Below are positions 1,139 to 5,172 of a stretch of 5,172 nt of DNA, one piece after another. A program made the translations under genes and the position numbers. Below the pieces are notes generated by a model. That model was not told the DNA's origin. It made no database searches and saw only the letters and a list, made by a program, of their open reading frames with translations. The stretch covers positions 1 to 5,172 of the IMG/VR virus record IMGVR_UViG_2778261249_000003; one strand, written 5' to 3'. Positions within the stretch are counted from its first letter, which is position 1, and each line of letters starts with the position of its first letter. The DNA is from a virus (lineage: Duplodnaviria > Heunggongvirae > Uroviricota > Caudoviricetes).

Positions 1139-2502
1139 CAGTGAAATACTACGCCATTCTGACTAATCAGGGCGCGGCACGGCTGGCTAACGCGACGATG
1201 CTCGGCAGTAAGCTGAATCTGACGCAAATGGCCGTTGGTGATGCGAATGGTGTCTTGCCGACACCAGACCCGGCACAGACAAAACTGATTAATCAGAAAC
1301 GCATTGCACCGCTGAATCTTCTGAGTGTTGACCCGAACAACCAGAGCCAGATTATTGCGGAGCAAATCATCCCTGAGAACGAGGGCGGATTCTGGATCCG
1401 TGAGATTGGGCTTTATGATGATGAAGGCGTACTCATTGCGGTGGCGAACTGCCCGGAAACGTACAAACCGCAGTTGCAGGAAGGCAGTGGTCGTACCCAG
1501 ACTATCCGCATGATTCTGGTTGTCACGAATACCGAAGCTATTACGCTGAAAATCGACCCATCGGTGGTACTGGCGACCCGTAAATACGTGGATGATGAAG
1601 TCCTGGAATTAAGGCTGTATGTGGATGAACAGATGAGAAACCACATTGCCGCACAGGATCCTCATACCCAGTATGCACAGAAACATAATCCGACATTTAC
1701 CGGAGAACCAAAAGCGCCGACGCCTGCCGCAGGAAATAACACCACGCGGATTGCGACCACTGAGTTTGTTCAGGCCGCTATTACCGCTCTGATTAACGGT
1801 GCGCCAGCCACGCTGGACACACTGAAAGAAATTGCCGCAGCCATTAACAATGACCCGAAATTCAGCACCACCATTAACAATGCGCTGGCACTGAAAGCTC
1901 CGCTGTCGAGTCCCGCACTTACCGGAACGCCAACAGCACCTACTGCGGCACAGTCGGTCAACAATACACAGATTGCCACCACGGCTTTTGTGAAATCAGC
2001 AATTGCGGCAATGGTGGGTTCTGCCCCTGCGGCACTGGATACACTGAATGAACTGGCGGCGGCGCTGGGGAATGACCCTAACTTTTCAACAACAGTGCTT
2101 AATGCACTGGCAGGCAAACAACCGCTGGACAATACGCTGACTAATTTGAGTGGAAAGGATGTTGCTGGTCTTCTCGCATACCTTGGTTTGGGAGAAGCGG
2201 CAAAACGGAATGTGGGAACAGGGGAAAATCAGATACCTAGTATGTCAGAATGGACATCTGGGACAGGATGGAATAGAGACCCGTCGGGGAGAATAATACA
2301 GCGGGGATTTGCTATGACATCAAGTCAAACTAACATTTTATTCCCGATACCATTTCCGTATGACGATTTCGAAGTTATCGTTTGTGCAGCAGATACAGGA
2401 GCAAATAAAGGGGCCGTAAATGTGTTGCGAAAATCGAGGCAGGGGTTTTCTGTTTCACAGGTTGGAAGTATGCCAGTCGCATACAGATGGATAGCGGGGT
2501 GA
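1135..2502 (+). CDS. H: Tail fiber protein H: constant N-terminal shaft (aa 1-350) plus the currently expressed variable C-terminal tip (aa 351-455)
   Basis: 455-aa ORF. N-terminus (MTVKYYAILTNQGAARLA...MAVGDANG...GGFWIREIGLYDDEGVLIAVAN) is typical of P2/Mu-type tail fiber N-terminal domains. Contains two tandem ~75-aa repeats in the shaft. The left 26-bp crossover site lies in-frame at 2171-2196 (codons L-L-A-Y-L-G-L-G-E). Sequence downstream of the site is AT-richer. Confidence 0.9.
   Translation: MTVKYYAILTNQGAARLANATMLGSKLNLTQMAVGDANGVLPTPDPAQTKLINQKRIAPLNLLSVDPNNQSQIIAEQIIPENEGGFWIREIGLYDDEGVLIAVANCPETYKPQLQEGSGRTQTIRMILVVTNTEAITLKIDPSVVLATRKYVDDEVLELRLYVDEQMRNHIAAQDPHTQYAQKHNPTFTGEPKAPTPAAGNNTTRIATTEFVQAAITALINGAPATLDTLKEIAAAINNDPKFSTTINNALALKAPLSSPALTGTPTAPTAAQSVNNTQIATTAFVKSAIAAMVGSAPAALDTLNELAAALGNDPNFSTTVLNALAGKQPLDNTLTNLSGKDVAGLLAYLGLGEAAKRNVGTGENQIPSMSEWTSGTGWNRDPSGRIIQRGFAMTSSQTNILFPIPFPYDDFEVIVCAADTGANKGAVNVLRKSRQGFSVSQVGSMPVAYRWIAG
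2171..2196. other. Left crossover site for DNA inversion (gix/cix/pix-like, 26 bp): TTCTCGCATACC-TT-GGTTTGGGAGAA
   Basis: Two 12-bp half-sites around a 2-bp core (TT at 2183-2184). The right half-site GGTTTGGGAGAA is the exact reverse complement of the left half-site of the 3954-3979 site. Perfect 15-bp inverted repeat: 2183-2197 TTGGTTTGGGAGAAG versus 3953-3967 CTTCTCCCAAACCAA. Half-sites fit the TTnTCnnAAACC-type pattern of Hin/Gin-family sites. Confidence 0.85.
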
Positions 2503-2507
2503 TTGAA

Positions 2508-2945
2508 ATGTATAAATTTGATCCAAAGAATGCATTATTCTATCCTGCCGCGTCAATTTCCGATTATAAATTGAGCGAAGATGAAATCGCCACATTCACT
2601 GATATTAGCGAGGAGGATGCAACCGAGTTTTTAGGATTCCCGCCGACTGGAAAAATCAGAGGGTCGGACGGTTATGGCAATCCTGCATGGGTTGAAATAC
2701 CTCCACCATCACATGAGGAACTTATTGAACAGGCCGAATCAGAGAGGCAATTATTGATTAACCATGCCAACGAATACATGAACAGTAAACAATGGCCTGG
2801 TAAAGCGGCTATTGGTCGTCTGAATGGTGAGGAACTGGCGCAATATAATTTGTGGCTGGATTATCTGAACGCACTGGAACTGGTTGATACCTCCAGTGCG
2901 CCAGATATTGAATGGCCTACGCCTCCGGCAGTTCAGGCCAGATGA
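2508..2945 (+). CDS. Tail fiber assembly (chaperone) protein, expressed orientation
   Basis: ORF ending ...LAQYNLWLDYLNALELVDTSSAPDIEWPTPPAVQAR, the conserved C-terminal motif of phage tail-fiber assembly proteins. ATG 2508 is preceded by GGGG at 2496-2499 (8-nt spacer) and follows the H stop (2500-2502). An in-frame ATG at 2487 would overlap H by 16 nt and has no obvious SD, so the start is ambiguous between 2487 and 2508. Confidence 0.8.
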   Translation: MYKFDPKNALFYPAASISDYKLSEDEIATFTDISEEDATEFLGFPPTGKIRGSDGYGNPAWVEIPPPSHEELIEQAESERQLLINHANEYMNSKQWPGKAAIGRLNGEELAQYNLWLDYLNALELVDTSSAPDIEWPTPPAVQAR

Positions 2946-3510
2946 CATCCGGCGCGGTGCTGGTATCTGTTGCCGTCACCGCGTCAATGTAATCCAGCAC
3001 AGCGTTAAGTCGGGTGGTTTCTGCCTGCGTCAGTTTACGTCCGGCCTGCAATTTCAGTTGAATCAGACTGATGGAAGCCATTGCAGTATCAATCAGCGAC
3101 TGGCGCTGTGCTTCTGCTGCATCTACTGCGGCGCTATGCTGTGCCTCAGTATCTGTCACCCATTTCTCACCATCCCATTTATCGTATGGCGTTAACGGTG
3201 AAAGCGTGACATAACCGTCTTTGATGGCACCGATATAATCCACTGTAACAGCTGCGCCATTTTCGATTGAGTAAACAGTCTCATTGCGGTGGTCTTCTTC
3301 ATGGCTCCATCCCTTACCCGTAAATACTGCCACTTTCCCCGGAATGTATTCGCCCGGGTCAATACCAGTGGAACAGGCGGGCATACTTACGCCAGTATTA
3401 ATATATTCATCAGACCAGCCCGTATACTCAGATGTTTCAGCATCATAATAAAAACAACGCATATCGCCCGGCACTGTAGCCAGCCCATTTTCATCAAAAA
3501 CAGGTTTCAT
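2917..3510 (-). CDS. Tail fiber assembly (chaperone) protein, alternate copy (Tfa') inside the invertible segment
   Basis: 197-aa minus-strand ORF with C-terminus ...LNAVLDYIDAVTATDTSTAPDVIWPELPEA, the same motif as the + strand chaperone, but an unrelated N-terminal half. Its ATG (3508-3510) overlaps the stop of the upstream minus-strand fiber cassette (TAATG). GAGGG lies about 9 nt upstream on the minus strand. Its 3' end overlaps the + strand chaperone gene by 29 bp (2917-2945). Confidence 0.85.
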   Translation of the reverse strand: MKPVFDENGLATVPGDMRCFYYDAETSEYTGWSDEYINTGVSMPACSTGIDPGEYIPGKVAVFTGKGWSHEEDHRNETVYSIENGAAVTVDYIGAIKDGYVTLSPLTPYDKWDGEKWVTDTEAQHSAAVDAAEAQRQSLIDTAMASISLIQLKLQAGRKLTQAETTRLNAVLDYIDAVTATDTSTAPDVIWPELPEA

Positions 3511-4007
3511 TATTTAGCCCTCACCAGAAAGTTAAATGCAATATTTCGCGGTCTGACAGCAACAAAATTCACACCATCACCCACAGAGTTACTGGTGAAA
3601 TTAAATCGTGAAAATCCTGGCTGATTTCCGGCGATGCCATCATGAAAGTTAATTGCGTGTCCCGCACCTCCGCCTATATTCCCGGCAAACTGAGAAAAGT
3701 TTGTAGCTTCCTGCCAGCTTAATAATTCGCGACCACCATCGGCACCTCGCCCGTCATCCCAGATACGAATGAAATCACCGCGGGCTTCAGGTAATACCAG
3801 TGAAGGAAACACTTTCGCCAGCACAGGGTAATCAGAGGCAGAAAATTTCGCCCCGTTGAACTTCAAAAACACCATACTGGACCAGCTGTCGATTACAGTA
3901 TTTGGCATTGCAGCGGACGGCCAGAAGAACGGAACGCCAATAGCTGGAGCACCTTCTCCCAAACCAACGTTTATGAAAATGCAGAGATAACGGGCAAGTG
4001 GCATCAT
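3510..4007 (-). CDS. Silent alternative tail fiber C-terminal cassette (Sv'-like; tail-collar-type receptor-binding tip), not joined to a fiber N-terminus in this orientation
   Basis: Minus-strand ORF, 165 aa as drawn from a Met-Met at 4007. The right crossover site (3954-3979) lies within it, encoding G-L-G-E in the same codon phase as the left site in H. The downstream 151 aa (GAPAIGVPFFWPS...LPEARGDFIRIWDDGRGADGGRELLSWQ...) carry a motif recalled as the phage tail-collar domain. Functional extent after inversion would be 3510..3966 fused to H codons 1-350. Confidence 0.75.
   Translation of the reverse strand: MMPLARYLCIFINVGLGEGAPAIGVPFFWPSAAMPNTVIDSWSSMVFLKFNGAKFSASDYPVLAKVFPSLVLPEARGDFIRIWDDGRGADGGRELLSWQEATNFSQFAGNIGGGAGHAINFHDGIAGNQPGFSRFNFTSNSVGDGVNFVAVRPRNIAFNFLVRAK
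3954..3979. other. Right crossover site for DNA inversion (26 bp): TTCTCCCAAACC-AA-CGTTTATGAAAA, inverted relative to the left site
   Basis: Core AA at 3966-3967 is TT on the minus strand. The reverse complement TTTTCATAAACG-TT-GGTTTGGGAGAA matches the left site in its core and entire right half. Located 55 bp upstream of the invertase start codon. Confidence 0.85.
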
Positions 4008-4034
4008 CTCCGGTTTTTATTCAGGGGGATGCTC

Positions 4035-4628
4035 ATGCTTATTGGCTATGTACGCGTGTCAACAAATGACCAGAACACGGAATTGCAGCGTAACGCGCTG
4101 GAGTGCGCAGGATGTGAGCTGATTTTTGAGGATAAAATCAGCGGCACGAAGTCCGACAGGCCGGGGCTGAAAAAACTGCTCAGAACATTATCGGAAGGTG
4201 ACACTCTGGTTGTCTGGAAGCTGGACCGGCTGGGGCGTAGTATGCGGCATCTGGTCATTCTGGTTGAGGAGCTGCGCGAACGCGGCATTAATTTTCGCAG
4301 CCTGACGGATGCCATTGATACCAGTACGCCGATGGGGCGTTTTTTCTTTCATGTGATGGGTGCCCTGGCTGAAATGGAACGAGAGCTCATTGTCGAGCGG
4401 ACTCGGGCCGGGCTGGAAGCGGCCAGAGCCAAAGGTCGTATTGGTGGCAGACGTCCTAAACTCACCGCGAGTGAGTGGGAGCAGGCCGGGCGTTTGCTGG
4501 CTGCAGGGGAGTCACGTCAACGCGTGGCACTGATTTTTGATATTGGTCTGTCCACGCTCTATAAAAAATTTCCCTCATCAGCGACAAAGAATAAATTGTG
4601 TCATCCCTTAGCCAACCGGGACAAATAG
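4035..4628 (+). CDS. Serine-recombinase DNA invertase (Gin/Cin/Pin/Hin family)
   Basis: Translation MLIGYVRVSTNDQNTELQRNAL...LVVWKLDRLGRS...GINFRSLTDAIDTSTPMGRFFFHVMGALAEMERELIVERT...RIGGRRPKL... has the resolvase/invertase catalytic domain with the nucleophilic Ser at codon 9 (TCA 4059-4061) and a C-terminal HTH region. AGGGGG at 4023-4028 lies 6 nt upstream of ATG 4035. The ORF-track start at 4029 would leave no spacer after that SD. The gene lies immediately outside the right crossover site, as in the Gin/Cin/Pin arrangement. Confidence 0.93.
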   Translation: MLIGYVRVSTNDQNTELQRNALECAGCELIFEDKISGTKSDRPGLKKLLRTLSEGDTLVVWKLDRLGRSMRHLVILVEELRERGINFRSLTDAIDTSTPMGRFFFHVMGALAEMERELIVERTRAGLEAARAKGRIGGRRPKLTASEWEQAGRLLAAGESRQRVALIFDIGLSTLYKKFPSSATKNKLCHPLANRDK

Positions 4629-4687
4629 CCTGACATCTCCGGCACAACTGAAAATACCACTCACCCATTAACCACGGAGTTGAACGG

Positions 4688-5172
4688 ATGAGTGACTATC
4701 ATCACGGCGTGCAGGTGCTGGAGATTAACGACGGCACCCGCGTCATTTCCACCGTATCCACTGCCATTGTCGGCATGGTCTGCACGGCCAGCGATGCGGA
4801 TGCGGAAACCTTCCCCCTCAATAAACCGGTGCTGATTACCAATGTGCAGAGCGCAATTGCAAAGGCCGGTAAAAAAGGCACGCTGGCGGCATCGTTGCAG
4901 GCCATCGCCGACCAGTCAAAACCGGTCACCGTTGTCGTGCGTGTGGAAGACGGCACCGGCGACGATGAAGAAACGAAACTCGCGCAGACCGTGTCCAATA
5001 TCATCGGCACCACCGACGAAAACGGCCAGTACACCGGACTGAAAGCCCTGCTGGCGGCGGAGTCGGTAACCGGTGTTAAACCGCGTATTCTCGGAGTGCC
5101 GGGACTGGATACCAAAGAGGTGGCTGTTGCACTGGCATCAGTCTGTCAGAAGCTGCGCGCTTTCGGGTATAT
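4688..5172 (+). CDS. FI: Tail sheath protein FI, N-terminal part (3' end lies outside the window)
   Basis: ATG at 4688 preceded by GGAG at 4676-4679 (8-nt spacer). Frame is open to the window end (161 codons, no stop); the six-frame track omits it for lack of a stop. Translation [54 protein letters not shown]... matches my recollection of the P2 FI sheath N-terminus. Confidence 0.88.

Follow-up and report, generated by a model that had tools for sequence, protein, structure and literature searches.

Invertible tail fibre cassettes have been described in the G segment of Mu (S/U, S'/U', Gin) and the C segment of P1 (Cin). Both follow the same logic, with a constant 5' part of the fibre gene, two alternative tips that each have their own Caudo_TAP chaperone gene, the two pairs arranged tail to tail, and an adjacent serine invertase gene. 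The e14 P segment of E. coli K-12 (stfP-tfaP / tfaE-stfE, PinE) lies in an element that is annotated in K-12 as a cryptic prophage with an stfE pseudogene. For the chaperones themselves, the model for Mu Tfa (gpU; structure cited as PDB 5YVQ) proposes that a non-conserved N-terminal domain binds the fibre tip and a conserved C-terminal domain drives oligomerisation (North et al., 2019, Nat Microbiol 4:1645, as summarised in PMC9608196).

We analysed a stretch of 5,172 bp (the window) that matched, at 100% identity, a prophage in the chromosome of E. coli strain 64.1 and of two further poultry isolates. The RefSeq annotation of the identical strain 64.1 sequence showed a P2-type tail module consisting of baseplate proteins V, W, J and I, a fibre, two tail fibre assembly proteins, a partial fibre, a recombinase, sheath, tube, and more tail genes. 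The RefSeq calls agreed with our own ORF list and Pfam scan for the window. In gene order the window matched the e14 P segment. However, e14 is a decayed element, whereas the window cassette is placed in a tail module that appears complete in the strain 64.1 annotation (V, W, J, I, H ... FI, FII, E, T). The two convergent chaperone genes very probably form the middle of an invertible host-range cassette of the Pin type, similar to the e14 P segment and carried by a P2-like prophage of E. coli, and we extend the same confidence to the chaperone roles proposed below and to the overlap of the two genes as a compact dual-coding junction.

This arrangement is a textbook Pin/Gin/Cin-type host-range switch and is already known. 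We therefore give it little weight as a discovery, since the switch is textbook, the overlap stands in the K-12 annotation, and the division of the chaperone domains has been published. The first-pass annotation of this DNA described the two chaperone genes and their overlap; beyond it, we find that an invertase-driven switch has this pair at its core and that the overlap is conserved, and already annotated, in the e14 P-segment family.

The invertible cassette and its orientations

The gpI gene (527-1138, from the ORF list and Pfam) is followed by the tail fibre gene H (1135-2502, + strand), which RefSeq names "phage tail protein" and which encodes 455 aa in the present orientation. H consists of a constant part (1135-2183) and a variable tip, Hv (2184-2502). 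Pfam placed a Phage_tail_fib domain (E 1e-62) at the N-terminus of the protein and Gp53-like_C at the tip. The gene tfa (2508-2945, + strand, 145 aa), encoding the putative assembly protein for Hv, starts with ATG at 2508, 5 nt past the H stop, and ends with TGA at 2943-2945. On the - strand, tfa' (2917-3510, 197 aa), encoding the putative assembly protein for the alternative tip Hv', starts with ATG at 3510-3508 and ends with TAG at 2919-2917. Hv' itself (3510-3966, - strand) is a silent alternative C-terminal fibre tip that matched PHROG tail fibre families (E 2e-52), and its stop codon (3512-3510) overlaps the tfa' start as TAATG. Each chaperone gene thus lies on the same strand as its tip and directly downstream of it, tfa after H and tfa' coupled to Hv'. 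Next to the silent tip is a gene for a serine DNA invertase of the Pin/Gin/Cin/Hin type (4035-4628, + strand) with Pfam Resolvase (E 3e-52) and HTH_7 matches and 87% identity to e14 PinE; a second in-frame ATG is possible at 4029. The sheath gene starts 3' of the invertase gene within the window, as judged from our ORF list and Pfam.

The chaperone pair is bracketed by an inverted repeat of 27 nt (2171-2197 and 3953-3979). Within it we read two 26-bp crossover sites. The left site (2171-2196, TTCTCGCATACC TT GGTTTGGGAGAA, central dinucleotide at 2183-2184) lies inside H, and the right site (3954-3979, TTCTCCCAAACC AA CGTTTATGAAAA) has its central dinucleotide at 3966-3967. Both sites have the 12+2+12 nt layout of the Hin/Gin type and are inverted relative to each other. 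The PinQ paper (PMC12529663) quotes the e14 P-segment site as CCTTCTCCCAAACCAA, and the inner half-site of the window sites equals the site given there, with the crossover half-site CTTCTCCCAAACCAA being the same in e14 and the window. The invertible segment is 1,783 bp long in the window and 1,797 bp in e14 (PMC12529663), while the Mu and P1 segments are longer, at 3 to 4.2 kb. The first 106 nt of the invertase gene showed a mean column identity of 88% in comparison with cin, gin, and pinE; this 5' part is conserved at the DNA level between the window and Mu/P1 and covers the stretch annotated as the enhancer in P1. A Fis-dependent recombinational enhancer may lie here, but the stretch is coding sequence as well.

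In-silico inversion of 2184-3966 joined the constant part of H in frame to Hv', giving a 501-aa H' followed by TAATG-coupled tfa'. The same prophage was found in nature in both orientations, one way in isolates 64.1, E5, and GPEC1258 and the other way in E7, APEC17, and E423. The inverted natural isolates matched window positions 2183-3970 exactly, and the E7 sequence showed 0 mismatches to the predicted H' gene; E7 and APEC17 carry the same prophage with the segment inverted. Of the 56 related loci for which the invertase alone had served as query, 29 had the orientation of the window and 25 the opposite one. In strain E7 the H' gene is annotated by PGAP as two pseudogene fragments. We considered whether H' is broken there and rejected this, because the ORF is intact and the split is an annotation artefact.

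On this sequence evidence the region is an active-type host-range switch. In the mechanism that we propose, the adjacent serine invertase would recombine the two 26-bp sites and flip the 1,783 bp between them, so that the constant 5' part of H is joined to one of two 3' tips, Hv (+) or Hv' (-), each followed by its own assembly chaperone gene, tfa or tfa'. The tip/chaperone pair facing the late operon would be expressed and the other pair would be silent. Transcription of the late operon would read in sense only the pair that faces the constant part of H, and the overlapping genes are therefore probably alternates that are not co-expressed. A promoter and terminator scan of 2000-4700 returned sites that were not above those in shuffled sequence, with no sign in this interval of a central terminator or of a promoter reading into the silent cassette.

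Domain organisation of the two chaperones

Both chaperones were assigned to Caudo_TAP (PF02413), with 108.2 bits for Tfa (E 4e-31) and 95.7 bits for Tfa' (E 3e-27) against a curated cut-off of 22.1 bits. In PHROG they matched different tail fibre assembly families, 188 for Tfa and 105 for Tfa'. BLASTP between the two proteins gave 33% identity over the C-terminal 87 aa (E 3e-13). A profile-profile comparison with hhalign, using profiles built from 46 and 41 homologues, gave E 5e-18 at a probability of 99%, with the match confined to residues 60-143 of Tfa and 116-197 of Tfa' (82 columns). The shared C-terminus that had been noticed from the sequence alone is thus far above chance, and the motif LDY(L/I)(N/D)A....DTS.APD(I/V).WP..P was present in both chaperones. 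The N-terminal halves had been called unrelated, and this also held, as neither BLASTP nor hhalign found any similarity between the N-terminal parts and their predicted secondary structures differ.

AlphaFold models of both proteins (pLDDT 93.8 each) showed a common C-terminal arrangement of a long helix, a short helix, a long helix, and an extended tail. The predicted N-terminal domains differ, being alpha/beta in Tfa (residues 1-63) and all-beta in Tfa' (residues 1-119). Approximate domain boundaries were 1-63 and 60-140 in Tfa and 1-119 and 116-197 in Tfa'. Mu Tfa likewise has two modules, a non-conserved N-terminal and a conserved helical C-terminal domain according to the summary in PMC9608196, and this division was mirrored by our hhalign results and AF2 models. 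However, the predicted all-beta N domain of Tfa' differs from Mu Tfa, and Mu U' was not significantly similar to Tfa' in BLASTP (E 0.25). A sequence search of the PDB with both chaperones gave chance matches only (E >= 0.25), and a Foldseek search of the PDB with both models gave nothing with E below 0.9. The Mu Tfa entry was recovered by neither the models nor the sequences, and the searches gave no significant match to a solved structure. Structural equivalence to Mu Tfa is thus not supported by these searches.

TfaE of e14 was 64% identical to Tfa' overall, with 99% identity over the C-terminal 93 aa and only about 40% in the N part. The last 37 aa of TfaP and Tfa were nearly identical, and there was no alignment N-terminal of residue 68. 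The StfP tip and the N part of TfaP are of a different type from Hv and the N part of Tfa in the window.

We propose that each chaperone combines a variable N domain matched to its tip with a conserved helical C domain that has a common role. The matching of the N domain to its own tip is inferred from their co-variation across loci and from Mu, and the C domain would have a common oligomerisation or assembly role. The first-pass annotation had suggested just such a tip-specific N-terminal half and a C-terminus of common function. This suggestion is supported, in that it fits the Mu Tfa model, the comparison of 63 loci described below, and the AlphaFold models.

A different view would take one chaperone gene, or else the silent tip, for a remnant in decay and the overlap for a deletion accident in a defective prophage. 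The partner Tfa was truncated in two of 71 loci (L034 and L036), and e14 is itself cryptic with its stfE pseudogene, both of which are in keeping with decay. However, neither ORF was disrupted in the window, almost all of 141 loci had both intact, and both proteins gave confident AF2 models. Diversity at codon position 3 was well above that at positions 1 and 2 in both genes, which indicates purifying selection. The natural inverted isolates carry an intact H'-tfa' operon, and the surrounding P2-type tail module appears complete. Taken with the weight of this evidence, the remnant explanation is exceedingly improbable. Shorter partner proteins of 131 and 136 aa were considered as truncated pseudogenes and rejected; they are intact Tfa variants of another type with the 29-bp overlap.

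The 29-bp junction

The two chaperone genes overlap tail to tail by 29 bp (2917-2945, both strands). The ends at 2945 for tfa and 2917 for tfa' had been read correctly in the first-pass annotation, and RefSeq/PGAP gives the same overlap in strain 64.1. Its further statement that the centre of the segment codes on both strands was right as to the dual coding at 2917-2945, but the midpoint of the segment is at about 3075, and so the overlap lies off its geometric centre. The overlap encodes (P)TPPAVQAR-stop on the + strand and (V)IWPELPEA-stop on the - strand. The codons are phased such that the third position of each gene is the second position of the other, so that no site in the overlap is free to vary. 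The last five residues of Tfa (AVQAR) lie outside the Pfam domain match, and therefore the two domain-coding regions share only about 8 bp.

Among usable loci fetched with Tfa, the overlap was exactly 29 bp in 85 of 85, and its DNA was identical in 72 of them. Among the loci fetched with the invertase, 56 of 63 showed the 29-bp overlap, and the remainder had junctions of +3, +4, -14 or -20 bp or a disrupted pair. The overlap was also 29 bp in phage pro483, in the Klebsiella phage KP12 contig, and in K-12 e14 (tfaP 1208132-1208545, tfaE 1208517-1209119), where it is identical to that of the window. The K-12 annotation and many phage records already show it, and it is an ordinary feature of the e14 P-segment family. 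Our survey adds that among enterobacterial Pin-type cassettes the 29-bp junction predominates and hardly varies.

One locus (L107) carried the same Tfa type beside another partner, and there Tfa ended in ...WPTPPGK-stop with an overlap of 20 bp. From this Tfa ending it follows that the AVQAR tail is the antisense of the partner's IWPEL codons read to the next stop. The survey thus also adds that the residues past WPxxP are simply antisense of the partner gene. We propose that the two genes abut so closely that each takes its last codons and stop from the antisense strand of the other, and that the overlap would be a compact, dual-coding and hence nearly invariant junction, inherited with a conserved core of 519 bp.

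Nucleotide diversity was 0.012 in the overlap compared with 0.155 and 0.069 in the flanking core. It stayed low for about 60 bp past the overlap into tfa' (2946-3009), and dual coding alone does not account for the low diversity of that stretch, which may reflect recent spread, gene conversion, or extra constraint. With a single one of the two genes read in sense in either orientation, no regulatory role has to be assumed for the overlap, and such a role is not supported.

The Mu and P1 cassettes differ from the window at this point. Their U and U' genes are 28 bp apart without overlap, and the spacer holds a perfect hairpin (AAGGCCCG-ATAG-CGGGCCTT) with A/T runs on either side, which resembles a bidirectional terminator, whereas no canonical terminator was found in the window. 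The overlap and its surroundings could on this account function at the regulatory or RNA level. A terminator or 3'-end stabiliser in place of the intergenic terminator of Mu/P1 would then be supplied by a hairpin (2870-2900) or by the two homologous C-terminal coding regions, which together make a long imperfect palindrome. We judge this reading very improbable. The putative hairpin has a 9-bp stem (CGCACTGGA / TCCAGTGCG, 2870-2878 with 2892-2900) and lies within tfa; in the - strand RNA it follows the tfa' stop at a distance of 16 nt. The - strand RNA of 2840-2950, just past that stop, gave a more stable fold than every shuffled sequence (z = -3.9), and e14 P-segment-type cassettes are without the spacer hairpin that Mu/P1 carry. 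The stem was mostly maintained across loci, with paired synonymous changes in a few loci (C-G to T-A in 7), and the low diversity that continues past the overlap would also be in line with such a function.

However, neither hairpin is followed by a U-run, and the terminator scan found 4 candidates where 2.6 were expected from shuffled sequence. In the stem variant seen most often (52 loci), the - strand RNA has a C-A mismatch within the stem. With 71 distinct central sequences as input, RNAalifold gave stable folds on both strands with a covariation term of about zero, the sequences being too similar to test structure. The stem lies within the codons of the conserved ALELVDTSSAP motif, and selection on the protein can account for its conservation. 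For the 2870-2900 hairpin, a role as terminator or stabiliser is possible but unsupported. The more specific proposal that e14-type segments lost a bidirectional terminator like that of Mu/P1, and that the late fibre transcript, whichever way the segment points, is terminated or stabilised by the coding-embedded hairpin and the palindrome, we hold to be very improbable. If it were true, a nearly invariant centre of about 180 bp would be under selection at the RNA level together with double selection at the protein level.

Cassette exchange around the conserved core

The overlap is part of a conserved core of 519 bp (2680-3198), made up of the two convergent C-terminal domain coding regions and the junction between them. 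The core was present at 85% nucleotide identity or more in 110-135 of 165 related loci. The flanks matched far fewer of the 165, with 4 for the block of Hv and the Tfa N part and about 24 for the block of the Tfa' N part and Hv'. The megablast matches to Klebsiella and E. coli phages covered the core block only. The P2-like phages pro483 and KP12 (the latter a Klebsiella phage contig) shared the order of the tail module and the position of the invertase with the window. However, their tips and chaperone N parts were of other types, and their DNA matched only at the core (2682-3198) and in the crossover-site/invertase region.

In the 63 loci compared, identity over the last 85 aa was 84-100% for both chaperones, against 25-41% for the N parts and 25-44% for the fibre tips. 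Tip and N part were replaced mostly together, with a Spearman rho of 0.80 between them on the + side. The left and right cassettes changed independently of each other; locus L009 had the same + side as the window and a different - side, and L019 and L042 showed the reverse. The pattern suggests that tip and N-domain cassettes have been exchanged between phages around the fixed 519-bp core, and it agrees with the modular model that has been published for Tfa (North et al., 2019).

The same observations bear on a stronger proposal, in which the core including the overlap is kept as a homologous-recombination hinge for the exchange of tip and N-domain cassettes and the tight junction has been selected and not merely tolerated. 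The core boundaries were sharp, near 2680 and 3198, and common to about 100 loci. The core was at least 90% identical in nucleotides between E. coli and Klebsiella phages while the flanks were 25-40% identical in protein, and together with the independent replacement of the two sides this is what a hinge would give. However, tail-fibre genes are well documented to evolve as mosaics, and such evolution would passively give the same pattern wherever a domain is conserved. Junctions of +3, +4, -14, -20 or +28 bp serve other convergent Tfa pairs, and so the 29-bp junction is not required. We consider selection for a hinge unlikely, and we prefer the reading in which the junction is a compact dual-coding one that has been inherited with the core.

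With the junction read in this way, the survey adds the 519-bp core as the fixed frame for the exchange of tip and N-domain cassettes. For engineering of P2-like phages or tailocins, this would mean that a tip is swapped with the N part of its Tfa (to about residue 58 of Tfa or about residue 104 of Tfa') and that the junction is left as is. The co-variation of tip and N part was imperfect in places, with loci L062, L072, and L078 sharing the Tfa' N part and differing in a 190-bp sub-block of the tip.

Sequence around the convergent gene ends

The nucleotide diversity was very low (0.02-0.03) across the ~60 bp that follow the overlap of the convergent chaperone genes tfa and tfa' (window 2946-3009). 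Dual coding cannot account for this low diversity, because this interval codes for Tfa' alone (LNAVLDYIDAVTATDTSTAPD). On the other side of the overlap, a perfect stem of 9 bp (CGCACTGGA/TCCAGTGCG) was located at window 2870-2900, within tfa and a short distance 3' of the stop codon of tfa', which is encoded on the opposite strand. Folding of the - strand RNA at this hairpin gave z = -3.9. The stem was largely retained between loci, and seven of them showed a paired synonymous change from C-G to T-A. No U-run followed the hairpin, and no covariation was measurable in the stem across the loci.

The counterparts of the two genes in Mu and P1, the convergent U and U', are separated by a gap of 28 bp (L003 3004-3031 in Mu and L004 7320-7347 in P1). 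Bordered on each side by A/T runs, this spacer forms a perfect hairpin (AAGGCCCG-ATAG-CGGGCCTT) and looks like a bidirectional terminator. In contrast, e14-type segments showed no counterpart of the Mu/P1 hairpin.

An exact 33-mer across the overlap was also present in a 314-bp low-coverage contig (NZ_VLXZ01000124.1) from an assembly of Alkalicoccobacillus porphyridii (Bacillota), which is almost certainly enterobacterial contamination.

Tfa' N-terminal part and fibre tip

The precomputed annotation of Tfa' homologues (window 2920-3510, - strand) contained a second Pfam family, PF28596, beside PF02413, and PF28596 is presumably the all-beta N-terminal domain of Tfa'. Three related loci (L062, L072, and L078) matched the window in the N-terminal part of Tfa' (94%) and at the two ends of the Hv' tip, while a sub-block of ~190 bp within the tip (equivalent to window 3552-3744) was replaced. 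Changes in the tip and in the chaperone N-terminal domain are therefore not always coupled.

In a few loci (L034 and L036, with L159 of the same type), the partner Tfa was truncated to 54 aa and another Tfa-like ORF was found 214 bp away, which suggests local rearrangement or decay of the silent cassette.

Fibre gene annotation and alternative starts

The inverted-form fibre gene of E. coli strain E7 (L002 4328-5833, NZ_CP104523) is annotated in RefSeq as two 'incomplete' pseudogene fragments. The ORF was nevertheless intact at 501 aa, and it was identical to that of the window inverted in silico. The RefSeq call probably reflects an artefact that arises when invertible fibre genes are annotated by homology. 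The shaft of the fibre H (window 1690-2130) carries a motif of ~80 aa in two tandem copies, the first with ...TRIATTEFVQAAI..APATLDTLKEIAAAINNDPKFSTT... and the second with ...TQIATTAFVKSAI..APAALDTLNELAAALGNDPNFSTT....

Further in-frame ATG codons were found slightly 5' of two annotated starts: at 4029 for the invertase gene (annotated 4035; window 4029-4037), and at 2487 for tfa (annotated 2508; window 2487-2510), where the start would overlap the 3' end of H.
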